DNA of 63,407 bases, filler included. It is 9 parts of 9 records of this genome, joined end to end, with 100 filler letters (N's around TTAATTAATTAA, not from the genome) between each part and the next. Parts side by side here need not be neighbours in the genome. Positions count along the whole stretch, not along the records: positions 47,365 to 52,801 come from SRR7504441_7232; 8 more parts are not named here. One strand, 5' to 3'. Shown here one piece after another: positions 5,165 to 58,931 of this stretch; the stretch's first letter is position 1; the number at the start of each line of letters is the position of its first letter. A model generated the notes under the pieces. That model was not told the origin of the DNA. It saw nothing but the letters and a program-made list of their open reading frames with translations, and did not search any database. The position numbers and the translations under genes were made by a program.

Positions 5165-5264
5165 NNNNNNNNNNNNNNNNNNNNNNNNNNNNNNNNNNNN
5201 NNNNNNNNTTAATTAATTAANNNNNNNNNNNNNNNNNNNNNNNNNNNNNNNNNNNNNNNNNNNN
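5165..5264. other. Artificial contig-joining spacer (first of eight)
   Basis: N44-TTAATTAATTAA-N44, which puts stops in all six frames. Identical spacers at 9086-9185, 33159-33258, 37082-37181, 41874-41973, 47265-47364, 52802-52901 and 58832-58931. Confidence 0.97.
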
Positions 5265-9085: not shown

Positions 9086-9185
9086 NNNNNNNNNNNNNNN
9101 NNNNNNNNNNNNNNNNNNNNNNNNNNNNNTTAATTAATTAANNNNNNNNNNNNNNNNNNNNNNNNNNNNNNNNNNNNNNNNNNNN

Positions 9186-26146: not shown

Positions 26147-27434
26147 CTAGTTCTCAGCTTGAAACCACAACCACCAGTGCAGTATCTCCGACTTATCGGG
26201 GTTTGCGCTATCAAACTGCATCATCCAGCCCTCGCCCATAAGCCACAACAACCTAGGAAACCAGCTCGGGTCCACCAGACAGTTGATGCTAAGTACGGCC
26301 AGCTTTTGAAAGGTCAGCTCGAATCTATGCCGACCAAAGTGCGCTGGGTTGAGCTCGCTCGTTTTGAGATAGTCCAGGGTCGTATCTTTTCGACCGATCA
26401 GCTTGAGCTTACATCTTTCAGCCGCCCCTACCAGCTGATCGTTTTGGGCCCCCGGATAGGAACCGCTGTGAAACTTGTCTAGAAGCCAGCACATGTAAAG
26501 GAACCGCACCGTCGCGAGCGAGGGCACCCGACACCTGCCGGCTAGGCTACTTTTGATGTGGATACACGAAATCCAGATTCGCCGGCACCCGGTCTCTGCG
26601 CCAGGGCGCATGCACTTGAGTGCCATCCGGTACATATCCTGCCACGCACCGCTGATCAGTGCGGCCCTCAAGCACGCCCACCGTGTACACTCGGTCTTGC
26701 ATCTCTAGCTGGCCGTTCATCGAGCTCGGTACGTAATGTTCCACTGTATCCCAGAAGCTGACAGCGTCAAATCTGCCATACAGCCGCAGTTGGAGTTCTG
26801 TCGATCGGCATATCTGCTTCCAGTCGGTATATTCGACCTGCAGCCCGCGAGATCTGCAAATCTGGACCTGCGACCAAGACAGATTAATCCCACACACTTG
26901 GATGCCCCGCTCTGTCCTCAACCAGTCCATCCAGTCGCCACACCCGCATCCACAATCGAACACTCGCATTCCCGGTTTGAGCCCCAGCTGACTGAACGCG
27001 AACTCAAACTTATCGAGCTGCGCCTGCGCCCTCGACTTGGAGTAATCGCCGTCATAGAAGTTGAAGCCGTAATCCAGACCATCCCCAGTACCGTCCGAAT
27101 CCAGCCACCGGGATAGAGCGTATCCGCTCTCGATGCAGCCGGTCGCGCTGAACAGATTGCAATGCAGATAATAGTTGCCAAACTCGATGCTGATGAGGAT
27201 GGCAGGGTAAAGCAGCAGCATTCGCCAGCCGGTGGTGTTGATCGCCCAGCCGACGCCGGCCAGGATGGCCAGGTGCACAATCGTGTTCCACGGCTGCCAG
27301 AGGTCATAGACGACTAGCGGCACATCGCGCAATTGAAGCCCCGTTGCGGCCTGCTCCTTCGTGGCAGCACACGTCGGGAGCAGGCTCGGTCGCTTTGTCC
27401 GAACGCGATGTCCGTTGTTATCCCCGACATCCAT
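26147..27434 (-). CDS. SAM-dependent methyltransferase, cyclopropane-fatty-acyl-phospholipid-synthase-like, with N-terminal TM segments
   Basis: AQLDKFE, LGLKPGMRVFDCGCGCG, GINLSWSQ, FDAVSFWDTVEH; at least one intron; start uncertain. Confidence 0.7.
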
Positions 27435-27439
27435 CAACA

Positions 27440-28956
27440 ATGAAGCGCCTGGCTGGTGCAGTTCGGGCTCGGTGCCAGCGGCGGGCTCCTGCCTCTGGTG
27501 GCCGGCTGCCAGCGAGGCAGCTGGCCATTCAGCGCAAATCTAAGAGTGCCCAGCCCATCCCGGCAGTGACGGCCACCGACAAACTGACCGGCAAGTCGGC
27601 CGCACTGGACATCGCGCTGCAGCAGATCACCCGGGCGCACGGCAAGGTCAGCCCGACCGCCCTCCGGCCCGTCAGGCCGGGCCAGGGCGCACTGATGCGG
27701 CTCGACTCCAACGACGGCGTGAAGGACGTGCCAATCACCTCCACCGGATCGCTCGGGTGGGTCCGCTGCCGGGCCGGGCGGGAGGCCCTGGTGTCAGACT
27801 GGACATCGCGCTCGGAGTGGGCGGAGTCCCGGGCGGGCGGATCACAGAGATATTCGGTACCAGCCGGCGGGGGCGGCGCTCAGGCCCGGCAGGCCCGGAG
27901 GCGTCGGGCAAGACCACACTTGCACTGCACGTGGTGGCCGAAGCCCAGGCCAAGGGTCCACGGCCCCTACCACCGGGCGCCGAGCAGGCGGGCAGGCGGC
28001 ACTTGTGCGTTCATCGATGCGGAGCATGCGCTGGATGCCGAGTACGCGGCTGCTCTGGGCGTTGCGCATGACAAGCTGTACGTGGCTCAGCCGGACTCCG
28101 GAGAGCAGGCGCTCGACATTGTAGACACGCTGGTCCGGTCGGGCGCGGTGGACGTTGTCGTGGTTGACAGTGTGGCGGCGCTCACACCCCGGGCTGAGAT
28201 CCAGGGCGACCTGGGCGACCACCACATCGCGCTGCAGGCCCGACTTATGGGGCACGCGCTGCGCAAGATCACATCCTCTGTCTCCAAGAGCAAGACCACG
28301 CTCATCTTCATCAACCAGCTCCGCGAGAAGGCGCCCGGCCCGGCTGCCGGGCGTTTACATCGGGGCTCAGGTAGGGGTAGTGTTTGGCAACCCGGAAGTG
28401 ACGCCGGGTGGGAAAGCTCTCAAGTTTTACTCTTCAGTGCGGCTGGAGATTCGGAGGACTGGGCCAGTCAAGCGGGGGGACGAGATCGTGGGCAATGCGG
28501 TCAGGGTGAAGGTGCCCGGGGGCAACGGCGCGGGTGTCACTGGTCTCAGGTGGCTAAGAACAAGCTCGCGCCACCGTTCAAGCAGTGCCATTTCGATATC
28601 GAGTTCGGGCACGGCATTTGTCGTCTGGGAGAGACGATCGACATGGGCTGCGCCCAAGGAGTGCTAGCCAAGGCGCTGCCGGCCCGGAAGACTGGGCTGA
28701 GTGCGGCCAGGCTGGAGCTTGGATCCACTATGGCGACATTAGCCTGGGCCAGGGCCGCGAGAAGGCCAAGGATTATCTGCGAGAGAATCCAGAAGTTGCC
28801 AGAGAGGTGACCGAGTCTGGGCCGCTTCGCTCACCGGCTGGGCAGCTCGAGGAGGCCATACGGGCCCAGCAGCAGCCGGAACAGCCCGTCCCGAGCTTGG
28901 AGGAATCGGAGCAGCTTGAGGCTAGCGAGGCGCCTGGTACTGATGAGACCAAGTAA
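27440..28956 (+). CDS. recA: Nuclear-encoded organellar RecA (Arg-rich presequence suggests mitochondrion)
   Basis: [74 protein letters not shown]; eight spliceosomal introns of about 36-41 nt, two of them GC-AG (28331-28370, 28673-28710). Confidence 0.95.
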
Positions 28957-33158: not shown

Positions 33159-33258
33159 NNNNNNNNNNNNNNNNNNNNNNNNNNNNNNNNNNNNNNNNNN
33201 NNTTAATTAATTAANNNNNNNNNNNNNNNNNNNNNNNNNNNNNNNNNNNNNNNNNNNN

Positions 33259-36200
33259 CCGGAGGGCCTGGCCGGCCGGGGTGGGCGGATACTGCAGCTG
33301 TGACATGATTCCGCAACCGCGCAGAGAAAACGGCAGCTGGCGGCAGCAGTGAGAGGAGACACCATGCCTGTGCCCTGGGAGGTCCAGCGGGGCTGGATGG
33401 AGGCCGTGTGGCTGGAGGACATCCCGCGGCTGGAGCAGCTCCTCGAGACCGGCCAGGCCCGCCCTCCCCGCCGGCCGCCCGCCAGCCCCGCCACAGGTCC
33501 CCATCGACTGCCAGCTGCCCTCCGTCAGCGCTGTGGGGGATGTCCCAGGTGCCCGCTCGGCGCTAGGACGCTCCCCGGCCGGCTGCTGCGCGGCCTGGAC
33601 TGGCCGGTGTGACTGGGGCGGGCGCAGAATTTATTCCGGAGCCTACTCTAGTTCGATGGAAGACTGGTGACCGCAGACTGCAGCGCTGACAGCAGCCCTC
33701 GGGGTGCAGGCGACACCGCGCTGCACTTTGCGCTGCGACAGCAGAAGCGGGCGTCCGTCGAGGTCGGGCCAGGGCTCGGGCGAAGGGTGAGCCCGGCGCA
33801 GTTGCTGGTGCGTTTGGGGGCGACCAAGGAAGGGGCGACCGTCACCAACGAGCACGAAGAGGATCCGAGGACTGTAGCCCAGACGATCGACGACTATTTC
33901 GACGCTGCCTCGACCGGCGACTTTGAGTCGATTGAGCCTCTTCTCGACCCGCACGACGAGGTGCGCCGCTGGTCGGGCGGACAGTCGTCAGCTGAGGTGT
34001 AGGTGCGGGTGGCGGTGTCAACTCTCGATCAGAATGATGCCTCCAAGCTGTTGGTGATCGCATGCAGGCTCGGCAGGCCTGCTCGCCCGGCTGAGAGTGC
34101 TGCGGCAGGATCGTTGCTGCCGATGCGCGTGCCTCAACAGCTAAAGTGCGCCCCGCTGATTATCGATCGGGCGAGCCATTGGCAGGTCCAAGTAGCAGCA
34201 GACACGGGCCAAAGCTTCGGCGAGAAGGTGGCCGTGAATGCCCCTGCAGCCTGATCGGATCCGGGCCAGGTTGCCAGGAGCATTCCTGCCAAGTGGGATG
34301 TGGGCTGCCAGTCAAGTCGGGTCTTTGACTGATTGCAGGTTCACGAGCTGCTTGTAGACCGGCCCGAAGGCGGCAGAATCGCGTTCGACCCCTCCACTAG
34401 CAGTGCGTTTGCCCAGCATAGCTGCATCTGGCCGGTGATTGTCTGTGCAGCCCGCACTTTGGAGCAAATGGACTTCCATTCGGGGTGCGTTGTCTTCCTA
34501 GTCCGCAAGCCACGGCCGCTCAAGATCGTGCTGCGCGGGTGCGCTGCAGGCTAGGCCCGCGCCCGAGCTTGTTCACCGCAGATGGGACGCGATGGCCATT
34601 GCGACCATGAGCTCGCCCTCGGCCCCATTCGCCGATGCCCAATTCGAGTTCAGGGCCCATCTCGTAAGCCAGTGCTAATGCCAGCGGTGCGCGGGCTAGC
34701 GGTCGGCAGGTACATAAATATTCCTGAACTGTCGGAGGAGCTGCCTGCAGACCCAGTGCGAAAGCTCACCGCTGAGGTGGGCACTGCTGTGCTACTGCAG
34801 ATCACGAGCCTGGGGTAGGTTGAAAGCCAGTTTGGGATAGTGCCTTTGGATCAGAAGTTGATGGCCCAGCTGATGGAAACCGACAACGCCCGACTGGCCA
34901 GGCACCAGGGCTGCAACGGCCTGCCTGATTCAGTGCAGGCTGAGAGTGGCGTATGAGGCGGCTGTTGAGTCCAAGGACAAGCATGCCGAGGACATGGCCA
35001 AGCAAGCTGTGGATACCTGCCAGGAGGCAATCAAGGCCCAGGCCGACCTGTTGTATGACAAAATCGAGGGCGACGGCGAGCAGGCATTTGACGGTGGGTG
35101 TTTTGTGTTCAATCTGTTTGCCCCAGCGATAGCCCTAGCCCTGACCCTGGCCCTGCCATTTTGGTGTGAATGGTCAGCGCTGCGGTTTGGGTATAGAGTT
35201 AGCGTTAGGGTTAGCAGGCGTTCAGATCTTTGACGGTGGGCTTGTTGCGTCGAATTCAGCGGGTCGGCCAGGCTGACTGGTGGTTGGTTCAGGGGAAGTG
35301 ATGCATCAGAAGAGCTTCAGTGATTATGCATTGATCAATTATCAAGAAATCCTAATCGAGCCTATCAAACTGTCAGTATTATCATGGCTAGTATAGCTAT
35401 CAAGAGCCCTGTGGCTCACTGAGCCATTGCTAGGGGGGAGTACAGACAGCCTGTGGTGGATGACGAACCAGTAGTGCAGAGCAGCAAAGAGACGCAGCTG
35501 GTCGAAGAGGTAGCCAGTGCTGTGCCTTGCTGGTTGGCTCACAGGCACACCCTAAAGGTTGCCCCACCGCTGCCACCACTCAACTACGGAGTCACACCTG
35601 GCGACAATGCGGGCGCTGCATTTGTCAAGTCACGATACTCTGAGAGCTTGGCGGTACCAGCCGCTGTGCCACCGCCCGTCTGGAGTGGTAAGCGGCTGGG
35701 TGGATGGTGATTGAGGCTGGCTGTAGACGAAGAGATTGTGGCTTACGGGAATCTGAGCACAAGCCACTGGGAAGAGCAATTGCTGCACAACCCTCAGGCG
35801 CCTTCTTAAACGAGCAAGCCCCGCGGCTTGGCTTGCTTGATCAGGAGCTGATCTCTTTGCGTGCAGGACGCGTACGCAATGCGCCGTTTGGGACGAGGGT
35901 ATCTGGCCTGTGGAGAGCAGACTAAGGCAGCCGAGCTCTTCAGCCAGGCACGCCCTGCTCGGTTGCTCCAATGCAAGCCTCTGCTGCAGGCACTCGCAGT
36001 GGACCCGGAATATTTCTACGCCAAGCGCGACCTCGCAATCGTCAAAGCGCTCCAGGGCGACAGCACCGAGGCACTGTTGCTGCTAAGACAGGTTCTGGGA
36101 GCGCTGTAGTCGATGATTCAGGAGTCAGGTTATATCTGATCACGATGGCCGTTACGCGCAAGCCTGGAGCGACATAGGGGACATCCTGGCATCTGAGGCC

Positions 36201-36805: not shown

Positions 36806-37181
36806 AGTTCTATACGCGCATTAGAGGGTTCAACTAATTACTCACTAATTACTTACTTACAAGTACGCATGATTGTAACTGACATGTAACTGACCGAATT
36901 AGGGCTCCCGTGGTTTCATAACCGTCCTTGTAAATCAAAGAGCCAAACCAACAATTGATTCTTCTCAATGTTTAATAACGTTGCTTTTACGTATTAAAGT
37001 GCGTAAACTTATTATACAAACTTGAGCACGCTCAGCGGTCAGCACTTTCGCTCACCGATTATCCACAGCCCCCGCCCCGAANNNNNNNNNNNNNNNNNNN
37101 NNNNNNNNNNNNNNNNNNNNNNNNNTTAATTAATTAANNNNNNNNNNNNNNNNNNNNNNNNNNNNNNNNNNNNNNNNNNNN

Positions 37182-41873: not shown

Positions 41874-41973
41874 NNNNNNNNNNNNNNNNNNNNNNNNNNN
41901 NNNNNNNNNNNNNNNNNTTAATTAATTAANNNNNNNNNNNNNNNNNNNNNNNNNNNNNNNNNNNNNNNNNNNN

Positions 41974-44012: not shown

Positions 44013-45150
44013 CTATGCTGGCATCACGATCTTGGCACCGCGGCCTGCCACGCACACTCAGCCCGGCTCAGCTGCTCGGCCCACCACGCCCGCGCCCACG
44101 CCCGCGCGCAGCACCGCGCCCGCGGCCTCGCCCTCGGGTCACGCCGCGGCCTCGCCCTCGGCTAGCGCCTCTTCCACCTAGAGCGGGCTGAGGGCCTGGC
44201 TAGCCGGCAGCCTCACGTGCACTGAACCGAGCACTGAGGGTGGCCTTGGGCTGTCCGCGCGCCTTGGCGGCCTGGTTGCTCCGGGCATTGGCCCGGCGCT
44301 GCTGGACAGTGCCTTGCATCCGCTGGCCGAGCGTGTGAGCTAGGTTAGGGCTAGTGCAGAGACCTGCTGCCGGTTGACAGGCTGCTTCTGCTTGACGCCG
44401 CCCCTGGGCTTCTTCCCAGCGGCTGGCTTGACCGAGTTGTTCTGGAACGAGATCTTGATGTCGCGAGGGGTGACTCGCCCGCCGCCGCGCCCTCCGCCAC
44501 GACCGCCCCTGTGCCTGGGCTGACTTGCCGCGCCAGCGCTCCCCACCGTGCTTGCCCGCGCCCACGTCCACGGCCCCGTCCGCGCCCCCGAGGCGTGGCC
44601 GGTTTCCCGCGCATCTGGTTCTTCTTGGCGGCCGACATATTCTTCTGTCGCTGGGCCGCCGATCCCAGCCGCTTCAGCGCCGCCGGAGTCCTGCCTCCAG
44701 TCGGCCCCGCCAGCCGACCGGGCGCACTTCTTATTGGCCGCCCGCCCCGTCGCAGCTCCGCCGCGTCCGCGTCCACGGCCTCGTCCGCGGCCGCGACCAC
44801 GTGCTGGAGTTGCGGCGCCCTGAAGACCCAAAGCTGTCGACTGGCGGCTTTGGGGGGGGCGCACCGCCTTGGCCTTGCCGCCGCGACCGCGACCGGCCTT
44901 GGCTTTGCCACCGCGTGCTTTGACGTTGATCTTGCCCCCGCGGCCCTTCTTCTTGCCCTTGGGTTTGTCCTTCTCTGAAGTGATGATGTCGTCTGCCCGC
45001 CCAAGCCCGCTCAGCCGCCCAGCCGGTGCAGCCGTGGGGCAGCCGGCTGGCAGGGCGAGGGAGCTCACCGAGCGCCATGTCCATCTTGGCCTCTGTGGTG
45101 CCCACAGCGAACTGCATCTGGCCAGCTGCCCCGAGTGCTGCGAGAGCCAT
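44013..45150 (-). CDS. RG/RGG-rich protein with an N-terminal UAP56-binding-like motif (ALYREF/UIF/CHTOP-type export adaptor); no RRM seen
   Basis: Spliced KMDMALDDII, several (RG)n tracts, DIKISFQN; about five short introns. Confidence 0.6.
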
Positions 45151-45200: not shown

Positions 45201-45857
45201 ATGACTTATGGGATGCCGGATACCGGTGTGGACATCGCGTTCATTGGGATAGCCGACGCACTGGGCCTGCTCCGCTCCGGCCGCGGACTGTTTGTTGACT
45301 GCCGGGACCCAGCCGACTTCGAGGCCTCACATATCGCCGGTGCGATCAACATCCCGGGCTTTGCCATGTGCGCGGCGCGTGGGCGGCCGTGCTCAGCCGG
45401 GGCAGGGTGATGGGCACGCTGTCAGCGGAGCTGCAGGCGGCGCTGGAACAGCTCTGTCGGGAGGCCACGCGGGACGGGCGGCCGGTGGTGCTGTACAGCG
45501 ACACCGCCGGGCGCGCGGCCGCCTGAATGGGGCTGAGCTGAGCGGCAGGCTGCAGTCTCGGTGCAAGTTCGTCGGGCAGTACTTGCACGAGACCGGGCTG
45601 CACCACGCCTGGCGGCTGTGGGGCGGATTGAACAACTGGAAGGCAGCCAGCCACCCGGTGCTCGGCGACCAGCGGCCGTACCTGGCCGGGTGATCCATGC
45701 CGCGCCCCCTGCTGAGCGGCGGGGCAGCAAGCTGCACGGGACGGCCCTGCCAGAGCTGCCGATGCCAGGCCACAGCCCGGATCTGTTCGATCAGCAGTAC
45801 GCCGTGCTGCTCGCAAGCAGTCGCGACCAGCAGGACGACTTGAGCTACTTCCTTTGA
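45201..45857 (+). CDS. Rhodanese-like domain protein
   Basis: FVDCRDPADFEASHIAGAINIP, VVLYSDT, LWGGLNNWK; three ~38-nt introns; the usual catalytic Cys position appears to be Ser. Confidence 0.75.
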
Positions 45858-45887
45858 GGCCACGCTAACCCTAACCCTTTGAGGCCA
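45851..45887. repeat. 12-bp direct repeat flanking telomeric CTAACCCTAAC filler
   Basis: cctttgaggcca at 45851-45862 and 45876-45887; ctaaccctaaccct at 45865-45878. Confidence 0.8.
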
Positions 45888-47364
45888 AGCTCTGCCGACG
45901 CTCGCCAGCAGGTCCGACCGAGCTCGAGCTTGGCTACCACAGCACCGGGTCCAGTAAGCAGAGGCACTTGCAGGCATCCTTGATGCCCTCGCTTGACTCG
46001 ACCCGATCCTCAGTAACATCCATGCTGAGGCTGTAGCAACGCTGGCAGCCGATATACCGGACGCCGTGTTCTTCTTCGGTGCGGGATCGACAAGACTAGT
46101 GACTAGGGAGCAAATCAGCGATGCCAGTGGTGCCCACTGGCGTCTAATGAATCTAAGGTAGCTCGCGTCTGTGCAACCATCATCTCATCTAGCCACATAA
46201 GTAAGGTTATGTCACATAACCTTCAAAGACACCAACTAAAAGAGCATTAACTCTAATAGATCAGTCGGTGTCTCGGCCTCAACATGTAAAATCGTTCTAG
46301 GACGGCCTCTACTCCGGAGAGGAGGTAGTAGCCACTGGAGAGCATAACTCAATCAACGGTAGCAGCCGTAGCACTCGTTCTAGGCGGACCAGTAGCGGAC
46401 CAGGAGGTCTTCTCACACACTCAAGTCTATTAGTAGTCATAGTCACGGGAGTCATATTCGCTGTCTGAATACGTGTATGAGTGCGTGCTTTCAGTGTAGC
46501 CCTGTCCCTCGGAGCTGAGCTCACTTTCCTCCTCCCCAGGGTCGCCATGACCATAGTCGTACGTATACTCAGTTACTCACCACACTTATGGAGCCAGCTT
46601 GTGCTCCTGTCATGCTCCGGTGTGCTGTCAGAGTAATCCTGTCCTTCAGCGGCCAAGCAATCTTTGTGGCTATTCAATGCACCCTGTAACAACACGTTTT
46701 CCATCTCAGCCTCTTCAGCTCTGTCTTCTGCCTCGCCCATTGCTCCAGACATCACTTTAACACCACTGACGGCCGGCCGGGTCCATCGGGGCGATTGTTC
46801 CCGGCCAGGGGGGTGGTCGTTGACTGGCGTCCTTCGGGCGTTGGGCGGTGTCAGCATCCCCCTCCGTAACTAGTGGGGGCTGACCACGCCCCCTCCGTAA
46901 GCCACGTCGTACACGCGCTACAGGGAGCCCCCCGCGGGTACCCCGCGCGCATGCTTCCGCGTATTTGCCCTTGTCCACATTTCATCAATTAATTTCTCTG
47001 CACACTATCTGCATGTGGATCCTCCTCTGAAACCATTTTCTCGCAATTTCGCCATTTCAGCCTGCTCTGGAGATTGCAGAGTAATTGCACAGAATGCAAG
47101 TAGAATTCTAGTAAAATTCTAGTACCTAGTACTTTACTGGTACTTAAATACAAATGTACATGTATGCAAATATAGTTCATTCAAATAAACTGCATTGGAA
47201 ACTGTGCCGAGTGTGCGACCTTCAGCTTTGACTTTGCTGTCGCCGAGTGCCCCTCATCCATCTCNNNNNNNNNNNNNNNNNNNNNNNNNNNNNNNNNNNN
47301 NNNNNNNNTTAATTAATTAANNNNNNNNNNNNNNNNNNNNNNNNNNNNNNNNNNNNNNNNNNNN

Positions 47365-48301: not shown

Positions 48302-49369
48302 ATGCCGGTCTACTCCATCTGCATTTTCCTGCGCACCGAGGAGAAGGTCGAGCCGCCTCGCCGCCCCTCGTGCGAGCCCGCCCCGCAGGCGCTCGTCCTC
48401 TCCCGGCGCGAGGAACTCTCAAGCTTCAGCTTCTTGTGGCGGTCCAAGGTGGCTGACTTCGTCAGATTCGCCAGGTAGGCTGGCTCCCGGGCCGTGTGTG
48501 AGTGCGTGTGCCCAGCCGCCAGGCGGCCCAGCACGTCGAGCCTGGCGCGTGCGAGAGCATAGTGCCCGACGAGCAGAACGATCGGCTCCAGTACGTCTGC
48601 CACGCCAACGGCGAGGCCTCCGGGCTGTTCACCGCGGTGCGGCCCGGACGCCTGCAGCTGTTTAGCCCGCGTGGCAGACGATGATCACAGACATGGAATA
48701 CCCGGCCAGAATCTGCTACAGGCTCCTGAACCAGGTGCCGTGTACAGCCGCCGCCCGGCTGAGCCGGTGGCAGCTGCTCGTCCAATTCTCAGAGAACTAC
48801 CGCGATAGGATCGTGTCGAGCCCTAAACCAATTAGCAAAGACCTGGATCTGGACTTCCCCCCGATGGCGGTAGCATCCGATTAGTGGCTGCGCTGCGATG
48901 CTATCAGCCGACCGTCCAGCGGCCTATAACCCAATCCTCGCAGGAGTTCCTGGTCAAGTACCAAGATCCGCGTAAGGCCGATGTCGCATTCCAGATTTTG
49001 CAGGTGTTTGCATGCCGTAGGCTTCGTGTATATAATCAATGTTGCAATGAGGCGCTAGTTGTGCAGCCTCCCGTTGCATTCGCAGCCCCCCACGATGCGG
49101 CTCTGATTCAATTGCTTACAGGACCTGGATGCAACAAAAGAGGTCATGTACAAGAGCATCGACCAGGTGCCTCATGCACTGGGTGGGGCGTGTCTGATCC
49201 AACGAGATAGGTGATCAAGCGCGGCGAGAGTCTAGAAAGCATCATGTCCAAGTCTGAGGTGCCCGGCCACTCGTACAGGCTCCCAGCTCGGCTGTTTCAG
49301 GATCTGTCGGGTGCGTCGATGAAGTTCTACCAAACTAGCAAGAAAACACGTTGTTGCACCATTCTATGA
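48302..49369 (+). CDS. YKT6: YKT6 longin R-SNARE
   Basis: ELSSFSFLWRS, ITDMEYPARIC, FLVKYQDPRKAD, VIKRGESLE, C-terminal CCTIL prenylation box; eight introns. Confidence 0.92.
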
Positions 49370-49751
49370 TGCACAAATGGGAACTTGACCAGTTGTCGCT
49401 CTCAACTTCATCATTGCATTTAAAGTCAGTAGCCACACTCGAGGGCGTACAAAGAGCACGCCTCAAACTAAAAATTATAGTGTTTTAGTTAGCTTTGGTT
49501 CACAGAATTCATTTGAAAGTGCTCATCTCTGGACTCAAATCGCTACTAATGCAAACGGACGTGTGTCTAGAAAATTCATCATGGTGGCTCGTAGGACTAA
49601 AGGGGCTGTCGTCCTGCAACCAACACAAATTGATAAGCAATCCCGGACAATTGAATGCCCTCACCATTATGGTGCTACTTTGCCCCTTGTACTGCGTCAA
49701 GTGGCCGAGTCCACAAGCTTCGAGCACCGGACCGTGCACCTATCGACACAG

Positions 49752-50783
49752 TCATCTAGCGTCGGGGCAATCAGGAGCCACCTCGGGAGATCCAATGTAC
49801 ACATGAATCCGGTGCATGTCGACTGTGGCAGTCACATCGACCACGTGGACCTTGGGATCCACCGGCCCGCTCGGCCCCGTGTACCCCAGCGCCTTGGTCT
49901 CTGCTTGAGGCCGCAAGTCCATTAAACCTGGCAGCACACCCTAACCCTAACCCTAAAGTCCATTAAACCTGGCAGCACAGCGACCAACGGGAGCGCCCTG
50001 CGCAGCACATCGTCTCTACGCGAGTAAAACACTACTAGCGACTGGGCCGCCACTCTGTGCGCTGGAAACTCTCCGCGCTCTCCTAAACAATCTGAGGCCA
50101 CAGCAGCCGCGGCCATGAACAGCTGGCCCATGCTGCCCTCGCCGTACTGAAATAGTCCTGAGTCCAACAAGCCAGCAAGCGCCACCCGGCATCCCAGCGA
50201 GTGCGCAAATACGTGAACCCGGTTGCCCCTAGCCAGCATGTACCTCAGCGCCAGCCTGAGCCGTTGGCCAGCCTCGGTGGCGTTGTTGCGGGCCTGTGCG
50301 AAGGCCACGTGCTTCACGTGCGCCGGCCACAGGAATCCGACCACCGTGAGCTGGTCCTGGGTCCGGTTGCGCAGGTGGTCCACAGTCCGATACACCTGCC
50401 CGCCAGATTGCCGCGCCAGTGCCAAGCCGGGCCGCCTTTTCGTAGTTCTGGCGGAAACCGTGGACGTAGAGCAGCACGGTGCTGTTCTGAGGGAACTGCG
50501 AGTCCGCCGTGACCAGGCCGCTCGCGGAGCGCTCATCAATCTCAGTCTGGTTCCGTACAACCGTCTGCTCCTCGCGGTATCCCTTGAGCTCGCGATCGTG
50601 GCTGAACTCGTACGAATTGGAGAGCAGCCTGGTGTCCGGCTGGAAGAGGCTAGTCGAGTCCGAGAATCTATCACAGCCGGCAGAGAACGGTCTGCAGGCG
50701 ATCATCCACAGGTTGGTGCAGAAGACCGGCTCCGGGGTCCCCTCGCCAGGACCGCAGTCCTCGGCTGCAGCGGCATTGCCCAT
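49752..50783 (-). CDS. Alpha/beta hydrolase (DUF900-like)
   Basis: LLYVHGF, VGFLWP, AHSLGCR nucleophile elbow, YSRRDDVL, ALGYTGP...VDV...H..Y; one GC-AG intron near 50398-50437 plus the telomeric intron 49928-49968. Confidence 0.8.
49915..49979. repeat. Perfect 24-bp direct repeat flanking (CCCTAA)3
   Basis: aagtccattaaacctggcagcaca at 49915-49938 and 49956-49979; (CCCTAA)3 at 49939-49956. Confidence 0.97.
49928..49968 (-). other. Predicted 41-nt GT-AG intron built from duplicated exon sequence plus telomeric repeats
   Basis: gtttaatggactttagggttagggttagggtgtgctgccag; removal joins ORF 49922-50674 to ORF 49752-49937 in frame. Confidence 0.78.
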
Positions 50784-51081
50784 CACGAGCTTCCCGCCGA
50801 GTGCTGTAGTCCCGCGGGAGCCGAAGGGTCAACGAACATCACATGGACCGTGATGGACGTGGCGATTGCCAAGATTGTAAACAGTTATAATAGCTACAGT
50901 ACACGTAGCTGCTTTTGATTGTGTTCATTTACTCGATCCCAATGGGCAGCTATCGTTACTGCGCCTCGCGCTATTTTTCTCAATCCTTAAATCAAGCGGC
51001 TCCCCGTTATCGACGGAAGTGCCACCGTCATGTTGCTGCAAGGCGATGCGTTGGAGCAACATTCCAGGCTTCGTTACGCCA

Positions 51082-52631: not shown

Positions 52632-52901
52632 GGCAGTAGTTCCGTTCCAACGGACACCACTGCAGCATCATGGACCGGCTGACCGGGTCTCCTGGATCGG
52701 GGAGCTATCGGGGAGCTCCCTCCTCCAGCAAGGGCGGGATATAACCGACGGCGGACCTCATTCATGTCATGAATGACTCTCACCGGATGACTCTTATATT
52801 TNNNNNNNNNNNNNNNNNNNNNNNNNNNNNNNNNNNNNNNNNNNNTTAATTAATTAANNNNNNNNNNNNNNNNNNNNNNNNNNNNNNNNNNNNNNNNNNN
52901 N

Positions 52902-53611: not shown

Positions 53612-56600
53612 ATGCTGCAGCATGTGGAGATATCCAACGGCAACAACTCGGCGCGGCTGGTACATTGGGCCAGCACCGCCGGGGGATTAGCCACGGTAGA
53701 TTGGGCCAGCACCGCCGGGAGATTAGCTCGGCCGGGGCGCGTGTGTGCCATGTACCGCCCAATCGACGACGCACTCGCCCGTCGGAAGGATCGGGAGACT
53801 CCCCACTGGCTGTGCGAAGACACCGAGTCCGGAGCAAACGCCTTGGAGCGTTGGCTGGGAATCGCCGGCGAGGAGTCGGAGGACACAGAAACGAGCTCTG
53901 ACACGGAAGACGAGTCTGAGCAGGCGGCCAATTCTAGTGCCAGGCACTCCAAGTTTGTCGTGAGTAGCTCGGGACGTGGCCTGGAGGCGATCGTCGGGCT
54001 TCAGCTCGATGCGCTCAATGGCGAGCCCCTCGATGGGGGCAAGTCGGTTTCTGAGCTGTGGGCCATGATTCAGACTGCACCGCGGCCGCTGGTCTTCCAC
54101 TTGAAAGGCCTGATGCCGCTGCACATTGCGGCAGAGCTGGAACCGCTGCCGAGTGCCACGGATCAAGCAGAGCTCTGCATGGCTACAGCCGGTCTAGCCG
54201 GGCTAGAGCTCGAGAGCAGCGACGACGAACAACTAGTCCAGGAGGTCGAAGTGGAATTCCGATGGAGTGGCTTGGGTCTGCCAGAATTCTCACTCGAGCC
54301 AGCTGGATGTCGTGGGCTGGAGCCAGCGGAATTCGCTCATCACCAGCACGAGATTCTCTCTCGAGTTCTGGAGGCAATGCACCCGTCGACTCAACAGCTC
54401 GCCAGGTTACTGCCGTCCTCCTCGCAGAGTTGTGACTTCTACTGACAGGCTTCGAGCCGTTTCGCCGAAGTGGCGCCAGACCTGCAATCTTGTCTTATCT
54501 TCATCTCTGCTTGAGCTGGGCTTGCGGCAGCCACAACCACAGACGCGCTCTCTCGAAGCCCTCGCAGCGCTGCCAGCCGCCGAACTGTATCAGCTGCTGC
54601 TGGCGTACAACGTTCGCTATGATGAAAGCTATTCGCGGAAGCAGCTCGAGACTAGGCTGCACTGCGCATCGCCCATCTGGCTGCAAGACCTCTCCCTCTG
54701 CGCCGTCAGCACCGATGCTGAAGCCCTGGCCAGCTTGGCGATGCTGCCATCAGTGTACGGTATTGTCATCAATGGGGCTAACGGGCAGGGCGAGCGAACG
54801 ACAGTCGGTCAGTTGATGTTCAGCGATCGCCTCTTAGCAGACCTGCCGCTCACGCGAAAGTTGGAGCGGTGCCGCATAAGTCGGTGCTCAATTGGCGAAA
54901 CAATCGTGCTCGTGAGCCAGCTGGGCGAAAGTGACAGCATACGGAGCCTCGAACTAGATTGTCAGAGTGACTGCCCCGCTGGCCAGCGAGCTGACTGCCT
55001 GGGGTGCAGGTCTGACAACAGCCAAAAGTTCTGAGGATGCCCACGCCAGGGCACAGCTGGGATCGGTTCTTGTGCAACGAGTAGCTGAACTGGAGTTGGG
55101 CAACCTGAGCTGGCTGGAGCTCACGGGCGCTGGGATCGATCCAGCGGGGCTCGGGGTCCTGAGCGAGATGCTGAATAGCCAGTTGGGCCAGCTTCGGATG
55201 CTCGACCTCAAAGACAATGTGCGCTTGCGTGCCGCCCGGCTGACCGAGTGCGTGTCGTGTAGTATTTGATTGGGCCCCACTGGAGAGCACTGACGCCCAG
55301 CCCAGATATCCTGGTGAGCTCCTTGCTGGATACAGTGCTGTTTATCTGGTGGTATGTCGCAGCAAATCAATGGGCAGAGCATCACCATCAATCAAAACAG
55401 CGTTGGCCTGGCTAGCCTGCTTGCTTCTGTGGGCACCCACCCATCGCTGACATGTCTAGACATTCGTTTCAACCATCTTTCCTGTTTGGAACTGGCGGAT
55501 CCAATTACATCAATGATCGATGCAGCGCTTGAGAACCCCTCCTGCCGGCTCCAGAGCCTCGGGCTGCCCGCCGAATGCCACATGAGCCGAGGCCAAGCAC
55601 AGAGTCGAAGTCAAGCTGCGGCGGCTGAGCGACTTGGCCAAGCACTGGGAAAGTTCCTTCGAAGTGACCATCCGTGCGATTTGACGGGCCGGCCCCAACT
55701 GATGCTGACCGATGCAACCATCTTCTACGATAAGTCGTCCCCCCCGATAGCTGCTTTCACAGGCAGCAAGCACCATCTCACGCTCATTGATTCACTCTCT
55801 GGCTCTGGCAACCTAGTGAAAATGACGATCTATATGCAGACATCAGCCACTTATCTCCAGACCTTGGACTTACGTTGCACGCATATCTTCGAATCGGGTC
55901 TCAGGACTATCGTGCGAATCCTGATGGACACTGAGCTTTACAAGGCGCCAGTAAAACGGCTGCTTCTGGGTGCTGCGGCCATAACCAATGTGTGGACTGA
56001 CAAGCTGAAGTCTAGTACTCGCAGAAACAGTAAATTCTACAATCGAGAGCGGTACTCCGTCGCTGCCGTGTTCCATCTGGCCATTGCTCTACGTACCCAC
56101 CCCACTATTGAGGAGCTGGACCTGAGTTACAATTGCCTTGGTGTGACAGGCGCTGCTGCAGCAGCAGTGATACTCCGTTCGGGCAATTTGAAGCTTCTCG
56201 ACCTCTCGCATAACGAGCTTTCAGGCGCAAGGAGCCACCCATGCAGTGTGCAGTCGGACCAGCATGCTTGCTGCGGCATTCCAATTTCGGGACTGGGCCA
56301 GCCATCGCCGCTTGAAGTTGAAACCGCCTCCAGCTCGTTCAATTTTGAGGGGCTCGCTGCAATGAGTGACAAACTAACCAGTAACACCGTTTTGAGGACC
56401 CTGGACCTCAGTGGCAACCGCCTCGATGACAGCGAGAGCACTGGCTCGCGGATGCTTGCGAAAGCGCTGTTGCACAACCGCACTCTACAGACACTGCTAC
56501 TAACAGACTCAGCCTCGGCAGGCTGCCAGCGCCATGGCTGGGAGCAGGAGACGCCCATTGCCGAGCGGGGCATTCCTGTGCAGCAGCTGCGGTGCTGGCG

Positions 56601-58831: not shown

Positions 58832-58931
58832 NNNNNNNNNNNNNNNNNNNNNNNNNNNNNNNNNNNNNNNNNNNNTTAATTAATTAANNNNNNNNNNNNN
58901 NNNNNNNNNNNNNNNNNNNNNNNNNNNNNNN

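Follow-up and report, generated by a model that had tools for sequence, protein, structure and literature searches.

The window analysed here, 63,407 nucleotides (nt) of DNA, consists of nine contigs chained by eight linkers, and these contigs are not necessarily genomic neighbours. On the minus strand of the contig at 47365-52801, within a gene for a hydrolase of the DUF900 family, a 24-nt segment of coding sequence is perfectly duplicated around a short telomere-like array. The explanation that we consider best, with a moderate preference drawn from the sequence, is that a staggered break was repaired with telomeric filler and that the resulting scar is spliced out as a new intron. Confidence differs between the parts of this reading. 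The insertion is almost certainly real, it is very probably a break-repair scar with telomeric filler for which telomerase is the simplest source, and splicing of its 41 nt as a new intron seems, by the sequence signals, somewhat probable.

Read in gene sense, the order of the elements is GTCGC, TGTGCTGCCAGGTTTAATGGACTT, TAGGGTTAGGGTTAGGG, TGTGCTGCCAGGTTTAATGGACTT for a second time, and GCGGCC. A direct-repeat search returned two copies of 24 nt with 100% identity at 49915-49938 and 49956-49979 (spacing 41), and Tandem Repeats Finder (TRF) reported an array of period 6 at 49938-49956 (3.2 copies, 100% matches). Strictly speaking, the filler between the copies is 17 nt long and becomes (TTAGGG)3 when the T that ends the upstream copy is counted with it; these 17 nt are in-register telomeric hexamers and nothing else. 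The repeat search found no inverted repeats in 49000-51000. The three elements are:

49956-49979, minus strand: upstream copy (in gene sense) of the 24-nt target, TGTGCTGCCAG/GTTTAATGGACTT, from the repeat search; its first 11 nt are the end of exon 2, and the GT at 49968-49967 is the proposed donor.
49939-49955, minus strand: 17-nt filler TAGGGTTAGGGTTAGGG, which with the preceding T is an exact (TTAGGG)3, with the G-strand in gene sense (repeat search, TRF).
49915-49938, minus strand: downstream copy of the 24-nt target, 100% identical to the upstream copy; the CAG at 49930-49928 is the proposed acceptor, and the last 13 nt are the start of exon 3.

The initial annotation of this DNA had described a perfect 24-base duplication around (TTAGGG)3, in which copy one supplies the GT donor and copy two the CAG acceptor, and the repeat searches and the sequence at the two sites bear out both descriptions.

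The duplication interrupts a gene with otherwise clear exon-intron structure:

50436-50783, minus strand: exon 1, 348 nt, with the ATG at 50783 (tblastn with P0001, alignment, RNA contig X6 record 16).
50396-50435, minus strand: intron 1, 40 nt, GC..AG, GC content 0.78, missing from RNA contig X6 record 16 (joint 50394/50435, both=3).
49969-50395, minus strand: exon 2, 427 nt, with the DUF900 match, a GHSLG-type Ser and a DDVL Asp (Pfam, P0001, conservation).
49928-49968, minus strand: candidate intron, 41 nt, G/GT...CAG/G, phase 1, GC content 0.49 (frame restoration, orthologue colinearity).
49782-49927, minus strand: exon 3, 146 nt, LMDLRPQAETKALGY...MHRIHVYIGSPE, with a near-invariant His (alignment).
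49740-49781, minus strand: intron 3, 42 nt, GT..AG, placed by orthologue colinearity.
49665-49739, minus strand: exon 4, 75 nt (tblastn, orthologue alignment).
49614-49664, minus strand: intron 4, 51 nt, GT..AG, placed by orthologue colinearity.
49509-49613, minus strand: exon 5, 105 nt, with the stop codon TGA at 49509-49511 (tblastn, orthologue alignment).

The gene product is a DUF900 (PF05990) alpha/beta hydrolase. Exon 2 matches the Pfam profile PF05990 at 1.4e-9 (38.2 bits, cut-off 20.5), and the match ends at profile position 168 of 232, ahead of the junction. A HMMER search yielded 263 relatives, the best of which, P0001, is 70% identical over 142/142 residues of exon 2, and a word-index search added three further full-length relatives at 72-75% identity. 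Four relatives (P0001, P0151, P0152 and P0153) are uninterrupted reading frames, two of them named as Trinity transcripts and two located on contigs of 1.4-1.6 kb. A sequence search of the PDB with the hydrolase gave no matches, and the genomic loci of the relatives did not turn up in two metagenome-contig scans. No protein of the same species spanning the junction was present among 5.8 billion clusters queried with exon 2 and exon 3 (the best were 70-75% identical), a blank that carries little weight, as the exon-3 cluster search also missed P0151 despite common words.

With the four introns removed, the coding sequence measures 1101 nt, or 366 codons. Residues 1-364 of its product can be aligned with P0151, and the other three relatives (P0152, P0153 and P0001) align to a similar extent; identity is 60-70%. 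The junction AVLPG/LMDLRPQAETKALGY (AVLPG/LMDLRP) aligns without gaps to AVLPGLMDMRPRAETKALGY (AVLPGLMDMRP), and at the protein level, the only level of this comparison, none of the four orthologues has extra residues at the insertion site. The claim that removal of 49928-49968 exactly restores the mRNA is thus upheld by the colinearity of the frame with four orthologues. If the 41 nt are retained, the frame instead reads AVLPGLMDFRVRVRVCCQV and LMDFRVRVRVCCQV and is cut short by a stop at codon 274. Across 58 aligned homologues, two residues, Ser185 and Asp247, never vary, and His300 shows at least 90% conservation (all numbered as in P0151); this histidine, part of the MHRIH motif, lies in exon 3 and so beyond the insertion in the direction of transcription. 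From the alpha/beta-hydrolase pattern we infer that the three residues have catalytic roles. As the stop at codon 274 precedes the near-invariant His, the downstream part of the gene is needed, and the loss of the His segment from an unspliced product, which had been claimed, is what the frame predicts. The downstream part also lacks signs of decay: identity to P0151 is 37/48 in exon 3 and 109/143 in exon 2, and both introns downstream of the insertion keep their GT..AG ends.

For comparison with the candidate, we used nine introns of the same contig, seven of them supported by RNA and two by homology. The seven joints in RNA contigs from runs X6 and X8 skip 39, 74, 40, 47, 48, 79 and 40 nt and have GT..AG ends or the complement, with one GC..AG; for two of the seven, the skipped part is retained in DNA contigs. 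Altogether, the reference introns measure 39, 40, 40, 42, 47, 48, 51, 74 and 79 nt, seven of the nine falling within 39-51 nt. The narrow intron range of 36-46 nt proposed in the initial annotation does not hold for the RNA-supported introns, which span 39-79 nt, but 41 nt does lie in the main group. By contrast, the proposal that the 24-bp duplication alone would be shorter than any intron stands, the duplication being 15 nt below the shortest of the nine references (39 nt). It takes the 24 nt together with the 17-nt filler to reach 41 nt, and the candidate intron would therefore not be a product of duplication alone.

The boundaries of the candidate likewise resemble those of its neighbours. 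The reference introns have a G at -1 in 8/9 cases, start with GT in 8/9 and with GC in 1/9, end with CAG in 7/9 and with TAG in 2/9, and are followed by G at +1 after the acceptor in 7/9; they have no consensus at donor positions +3 to +6 and no sharp branch-point consensus. The candidate, GTTTAA...TGCCAG, has the G at -1, the CAG end and the G after the acceptor, all three. Within the duplicated unit, read from the sequence, only CAG/GT provides both a GT start and an AG end, which makes the 41-nt excision unique. Decoy pairs of the form G/GT..(36-55 nt)..YAG/G are rare, with only two in 1098 exonic nt of the DUF900 gene. The GC..AG intron at 50396-50435 and the variable positions +3 to +6 point to a very loose 5' splice-site code. 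Intron 1 is missing from the X6 RNA contig, which shows transcription of the gene in a closely related haplotype.

Two other approaches to intron lengths were made. A count of frame-bridging introns had no length peak. A dynamic-programming gene finder, whose reference set included two wrongly placed homology introns, over-chained at low penalty and recovered 0/7 of the RNA-supported introns at penalties 12-18, and its histogram was not used.

The structure is present in DNA outside the window assembly. Mapping of genomic reads across the insertion had been proposed as a check, and a 235-nt contig from DNA run X1 (record 1), which spans 49770-50004 with 0 gaps, reproduces the whole structure. 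It differs from the window at a single position, 49887, where CTG>CTC is synonymous, and it reaches 49 letters to the right of 49955/49956, more than 100 to the left of 49938/49939 and only 25 beyond 49979. A neighbouring X1 contig of 898 nt has 15 differences from the window and still contains two introns; X1 therefore represents DNA, and DNA of another haplotype. That the insertion is derived, and that it lies in an exon, is supported.

The age of the event is a different matter. The initial annotation had called it recent, and the zero differences within 24 nt agree with this, but the age is only loosely bounded. By our own rough estimate, zero differences in 24 nt excludes only ages beyond about 10% neutral divergence, and the insertion is common to two haplotypes that differ at 15/898 positions nearby.

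In another DNA run, X2, a contig agrees with the gene from position 49997 to the right and continues with 255 letters unlike the window, at 18 nt from the duplication. It may represent a structural variant, a paralogue or DNA of another species, and we draw no conclusion from it; one piece of run X2 has less than 90% identity to the window.

Chance was assessed with several controls. By shuffling of the window, 0.12 exact matches to the 12-mer TTAGGGTTAGGG are expected; the window has four, a number reached by 0/100 shuffles. A more even-handed comparison was with nine permuted hexamer units in all six rotations, with one mismatch allowed. Each of these units produced 0-4 twelve-mer loci with a length of at most 14 nt, and the telomere unit gave four loci, three of them of 18-21 nt. 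The bare count of four telomere-type loci is not exceptional against this control. The flanking repeat stands out more clearly: direct repeats of at least 11 nt flanked 9/2903 random sites, and the longest at random was 12 nt (3/2903), as against 24 nt here. Of the 28 local direct repeats with exact copies that the window contains, the 24-nt pair is also the longest.

Together, these data suggest a model for the origin of the structure. A break with staggered ends would have occurred inside an exon of the conserved DUF900 hydrolase gene, and filling-in of both 24-nt overhangs would have created the 24-bp target duplication. Before joining, about three telomere repeats would have been added to one 3' end, most simply by telomerase. 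Because the duplicated target holds CAG/GT, the scar would carry a donor as well as an acceptor, the GT in copy 1 and the CAG in copy 2, 41 nt apart. The spliceosome would remove these 41 nt and regenerate the original mRNA, and since splicing would restore the mRNA, the insertion would persist as a new phase-1 intron and not as a null allele.

Several observations speak against this model or weaken it. Runs X6 and X8 have zero RNA depth over 49731-50276, which includes the candidate site, and the X6 RNA contig (record 16), which differs from the window at 50345 and 50556, may come from a haplotype without the insertion. Positions +3 to +6 of the candidate donor (TTAA) match nothing in particular, and the best branch-point A by our reading, in GTTAGGG 14 nt upstream of the acceptor, belongs to no clear consensus. 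Target and repeat are in register over 1 nt only, a weak microhomology signature of telomerase priming, and the window contains no terminal telomere array by which TTAGGG could be established as the telomere repeat of the host. No empty allele was found in the environmental DNA contigs mapped or in two metagenome-contig scans, and X1 is possibly from the same study as the window assembly, so that its independence is partial. Finally, AGGT occurs by estimate in about 8% of 24-nt windows and is expected in as many 24-nt duplications, and a splice-competent duplication is therefore not improbable even for a non-functional scar.

The last point leads directly to the main alternative, which accepts the same repair scar but leaves it unspliced: the window would then carry a recent frameshifting allele, null or hypomorphic, of a gene that is dispensable and in which decay has not yet set in. 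We consider this a serious possibility, though a distinctly less probable one. It draws on the lack of any RNA contig over the insertion site and on the identity of the two copies, which would fit an event too recent for decay to be visible downstream. It also accords with human interstitial telomeric repeats, which are absent from exons, as would fit harmful insertions, in the portion of PMC7215372 drawn on here, where an effect on splicing is left open. An unspliced allele, however, does not readily account for the presence of the insertion both in the window assembly and in a second haplotype (X1), nor for the synonymous nature of the sole nearby X1 difference. Exon 3 is conserved like exon 2, both downstream introns are intact, and the length and boundaries of the 41 nt fit the local introns in a gene with very few decoys. 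Conservation of the gene family and transcription of the gene in a closely related haplotype also speak against it.

A second alternative concerns the source of the filler. The structure may be real, and perhaps spliced, with a filler that did not come from telomerase: telomeric or interstitial telomeric DNA could have been copied or captured in polymerase-mediated or alternative end joining, or another reverse transcriptase could have been involved. We consider this unlikely. The evidence on it comes in part from two further loci of the window in which telomere-like sequence is associated with direct repeats:

45851-45891, no strand assigned: second telomere-like insertion, CCTTTGAGGCCA twice around CGCTAACCCTAAC, period 25 (repeat search).
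35075-35255, no strand assigned: third case, a 39-nt direct repeat of 72% identity with an exact 12-nt core TTTGACGGTGGG, period 142 (repeat search).

At 45851-45891, an exact direct repeat of 12 nt (16 nt with one mismatch) flanks the insertion, and AGG of the target, read in G-strand orientation, is in register with the repeat; a flanking repeat as long as this was found at 9/2903 random sites. The first copy contains the TGA that ends the plus-strand ORF (open reading frame) 45537-45857, and the insertion may have taken place at a stop codon or in a 3' untranslated region. The direct repeat at 35075-35255, inside the end of a plus-strand ORF, encloses degenerate CCCTAG/CCCTGA/CCCTGG/CCCTG and GTTAGCGTTAGGGTTAGC arrays in inverted orientation (C-strand and G-strand). 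The locus may go back to an older event of this type or to the capture of a fragment whose ends resemble telomeres, and the orientation fits capture better than two healed ends. Pfam searches with the ORFs around both loci gave nothing usable.

A filler of non-telomerase origin is therefore in keeping with the arrays at 35075-35255, oriented as in a captured fragment, and with the single nucleotide in register at the main site. On the other hand, the filler at the main site is exact, in register and pure repeat, and at the 45851 site 3 nt (AGG) are in register, a signature that is enriched at mammalian loci (Table 6 of PMC7215372, in the part drawn on here).

Beyond the single locus, the presence of three such scars in about 62 kb suggests a recurrent process, with duplications that differ in length (24, 12 and 12-39 nt). 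It is tempting to extend our model: telomerase-seeded filler and long duplications would arise recurrently, the spliceosome of this host would require little beyond G/GY, about 40 nt and YAG/G, and exonic scars would be born as working introns. We regard this extension as speculative and rather improbable. A fourth, isolated match of 12 nt to the telomere-like sequence, GGTTAGGGCTAG at 44343-44354, has a longest flanking direct repeat of 5 nt and is probably due to chance.

An assembly or amplification artefact is very improbable. The window does consist of short contigs, chained together, from an assembly of environmental DNA, and X1 has a depth of only 2, but a separately built X1 contig of a different haplotype repeats the structure base for base, which makes an artefact unlikely; repeats of 24 nt stay below the 31-letter word length of the assembler, so that no loop is possible, and chimeras do not place telomere repeats between precise duplications. 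Even less credible is an old intron common to relatives with secondary repeats: the relatives, being uninterrupted reading frames, are uninformative on an intron at this position, but the candidate opens with the same 13 nt as the next exon and closes with the same 11 nt as the previous exon, both matches being perfect, and an old intron would have no reason to mirror both flanking exons.

As to the source of the DNA, parts of the contig at 47365-52801 were found only in marine or seawater metagenome or metatranscriptome runs, with shares of at most 0.16, and the gene content of the window is eukaryotic (COP9 subunit 3, a KAT11/bromodomain/PHD protein, a bacterial-type RecA). The host is an uncultured marine eukaryote (protist). 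The RecA domain is encoded by the ORF at 27242-28807; it is a strong bacterial-type match (2e-61) amid an otherwise eukaryotic gene set, and the protein is presumably targeted to an organelle. An Atlas search with the COP9 subunit placed it no more precisely than Eukaryota, and an Rfam search of the whole window gave no matches. A tandem duplication is found at 53659-53727 (period 36 nt, 1.9 copies, 93% matches), with a 20-nt exact core ATTGGGCCAGCACCGCCGGG. The linkers between the contigs have the following form and positions:

5165-5264, 9086-9185, 33159-33258, 37082-37181, 41874-41973, 47265-47364, 52802-52901 and 58832-58931: eight identical linkers, N44-TTAATTAATTAA-N44.

The routes that the initial annotation had invoked, namely AGGT duplication, intron gain by break repair and telomeric insertion at breaks, are all documented in the passages drawn on from PMC3265369, PMC4974935, PMC4202315 and PMC7215372. 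A telomere-repeat-filled duplication that acts as an intron was not found in the literature covered by titles and opened passages, which excludes subscription journals and supplements. The stem 'telomer' has no occurrence in the main text of PMC4202315, whose supplement could hold a telomeric case, and none in the text of PMC11282704.

Why might such a structure matter? It is seldom possible to trace the sequence of a new intron to its source, and here all bases are accounted for, 24 nt by duplicated exon and 17 nt by telomere repeat. Splicing of the 41 nt, if it occurs, would mean that a telomere-repeat insertion in an exon, which would normally be expected to kill the gene, had been neutralised at birth by the splicing machinery. 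Telomerase would then join the known sources of intron sequence, and a link would be made between AGGT duplication, intron gain by break repair and the insertion of interstitial telomeric repeats. If the reading as recurrent scars is true as well, transposon-free, enzyme-templated intron gain could feed a dense population of introns of about 40 nt. If the 41 nt are not spliced, the allele would be a young null of the ordinary sort, though with a repair scar that is instructive in itself.

Short interstitial telomeric sequences of mammals (primates, rodents, horse) arise in one step at breaks, and at 3/66 horse loci telomere repeats were inserted at staggered breaks with duplication of the flank (PMC7215372). 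The structure described here is like these sequences in its short exact in-register repeat, in the direct duplication that sometimes accompanies them, where it is attributed to a staggered break, and, only weakly at the main site (1 nt, against 3 nt at 45851-45891), in target nucleotides in register. It differs from the mammalian cases in lying in a conserved coding exon of a marine protist, poised for splicing, and its insertion in one step is a proposal. In tandem duplications of an AGGT segment, the donor comes from copy 1 and the acceptor from copy 2, and the mRNA is restored exactly (PMC3265369, PMC4974935). Here, too, a duplicated AG/GT would give both splice sites, but unlike in pure AGGT-duplication introns, 17 of the 41 nt are non-duplicated filler and the duplication covers 24 nt only.

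New introns of Daphnia have been attributed to staggered-break repair, with repeats of 4-12 bp and an insert of mostly unknown source (PMC4202315). The candidate shares with them an insert flanked by a direct repeat of the adjoining exon end; its repeat, by contrast, is 24 nt long and the nature of its filler is evident. Introners, which are transposon-derived introns, co-opt the target-site duplication for a splice site (PMC11282704), and in the candidate as well a target-site duplication would contribute a splice site at birth. Unlike introners, however, it has no transposon body, no terminal inverted repeats and no multi-copy family, and the duplication lengths in the window vary. We therefore see in the candidate not a new category but an apparently new combination of kinds that are already known.

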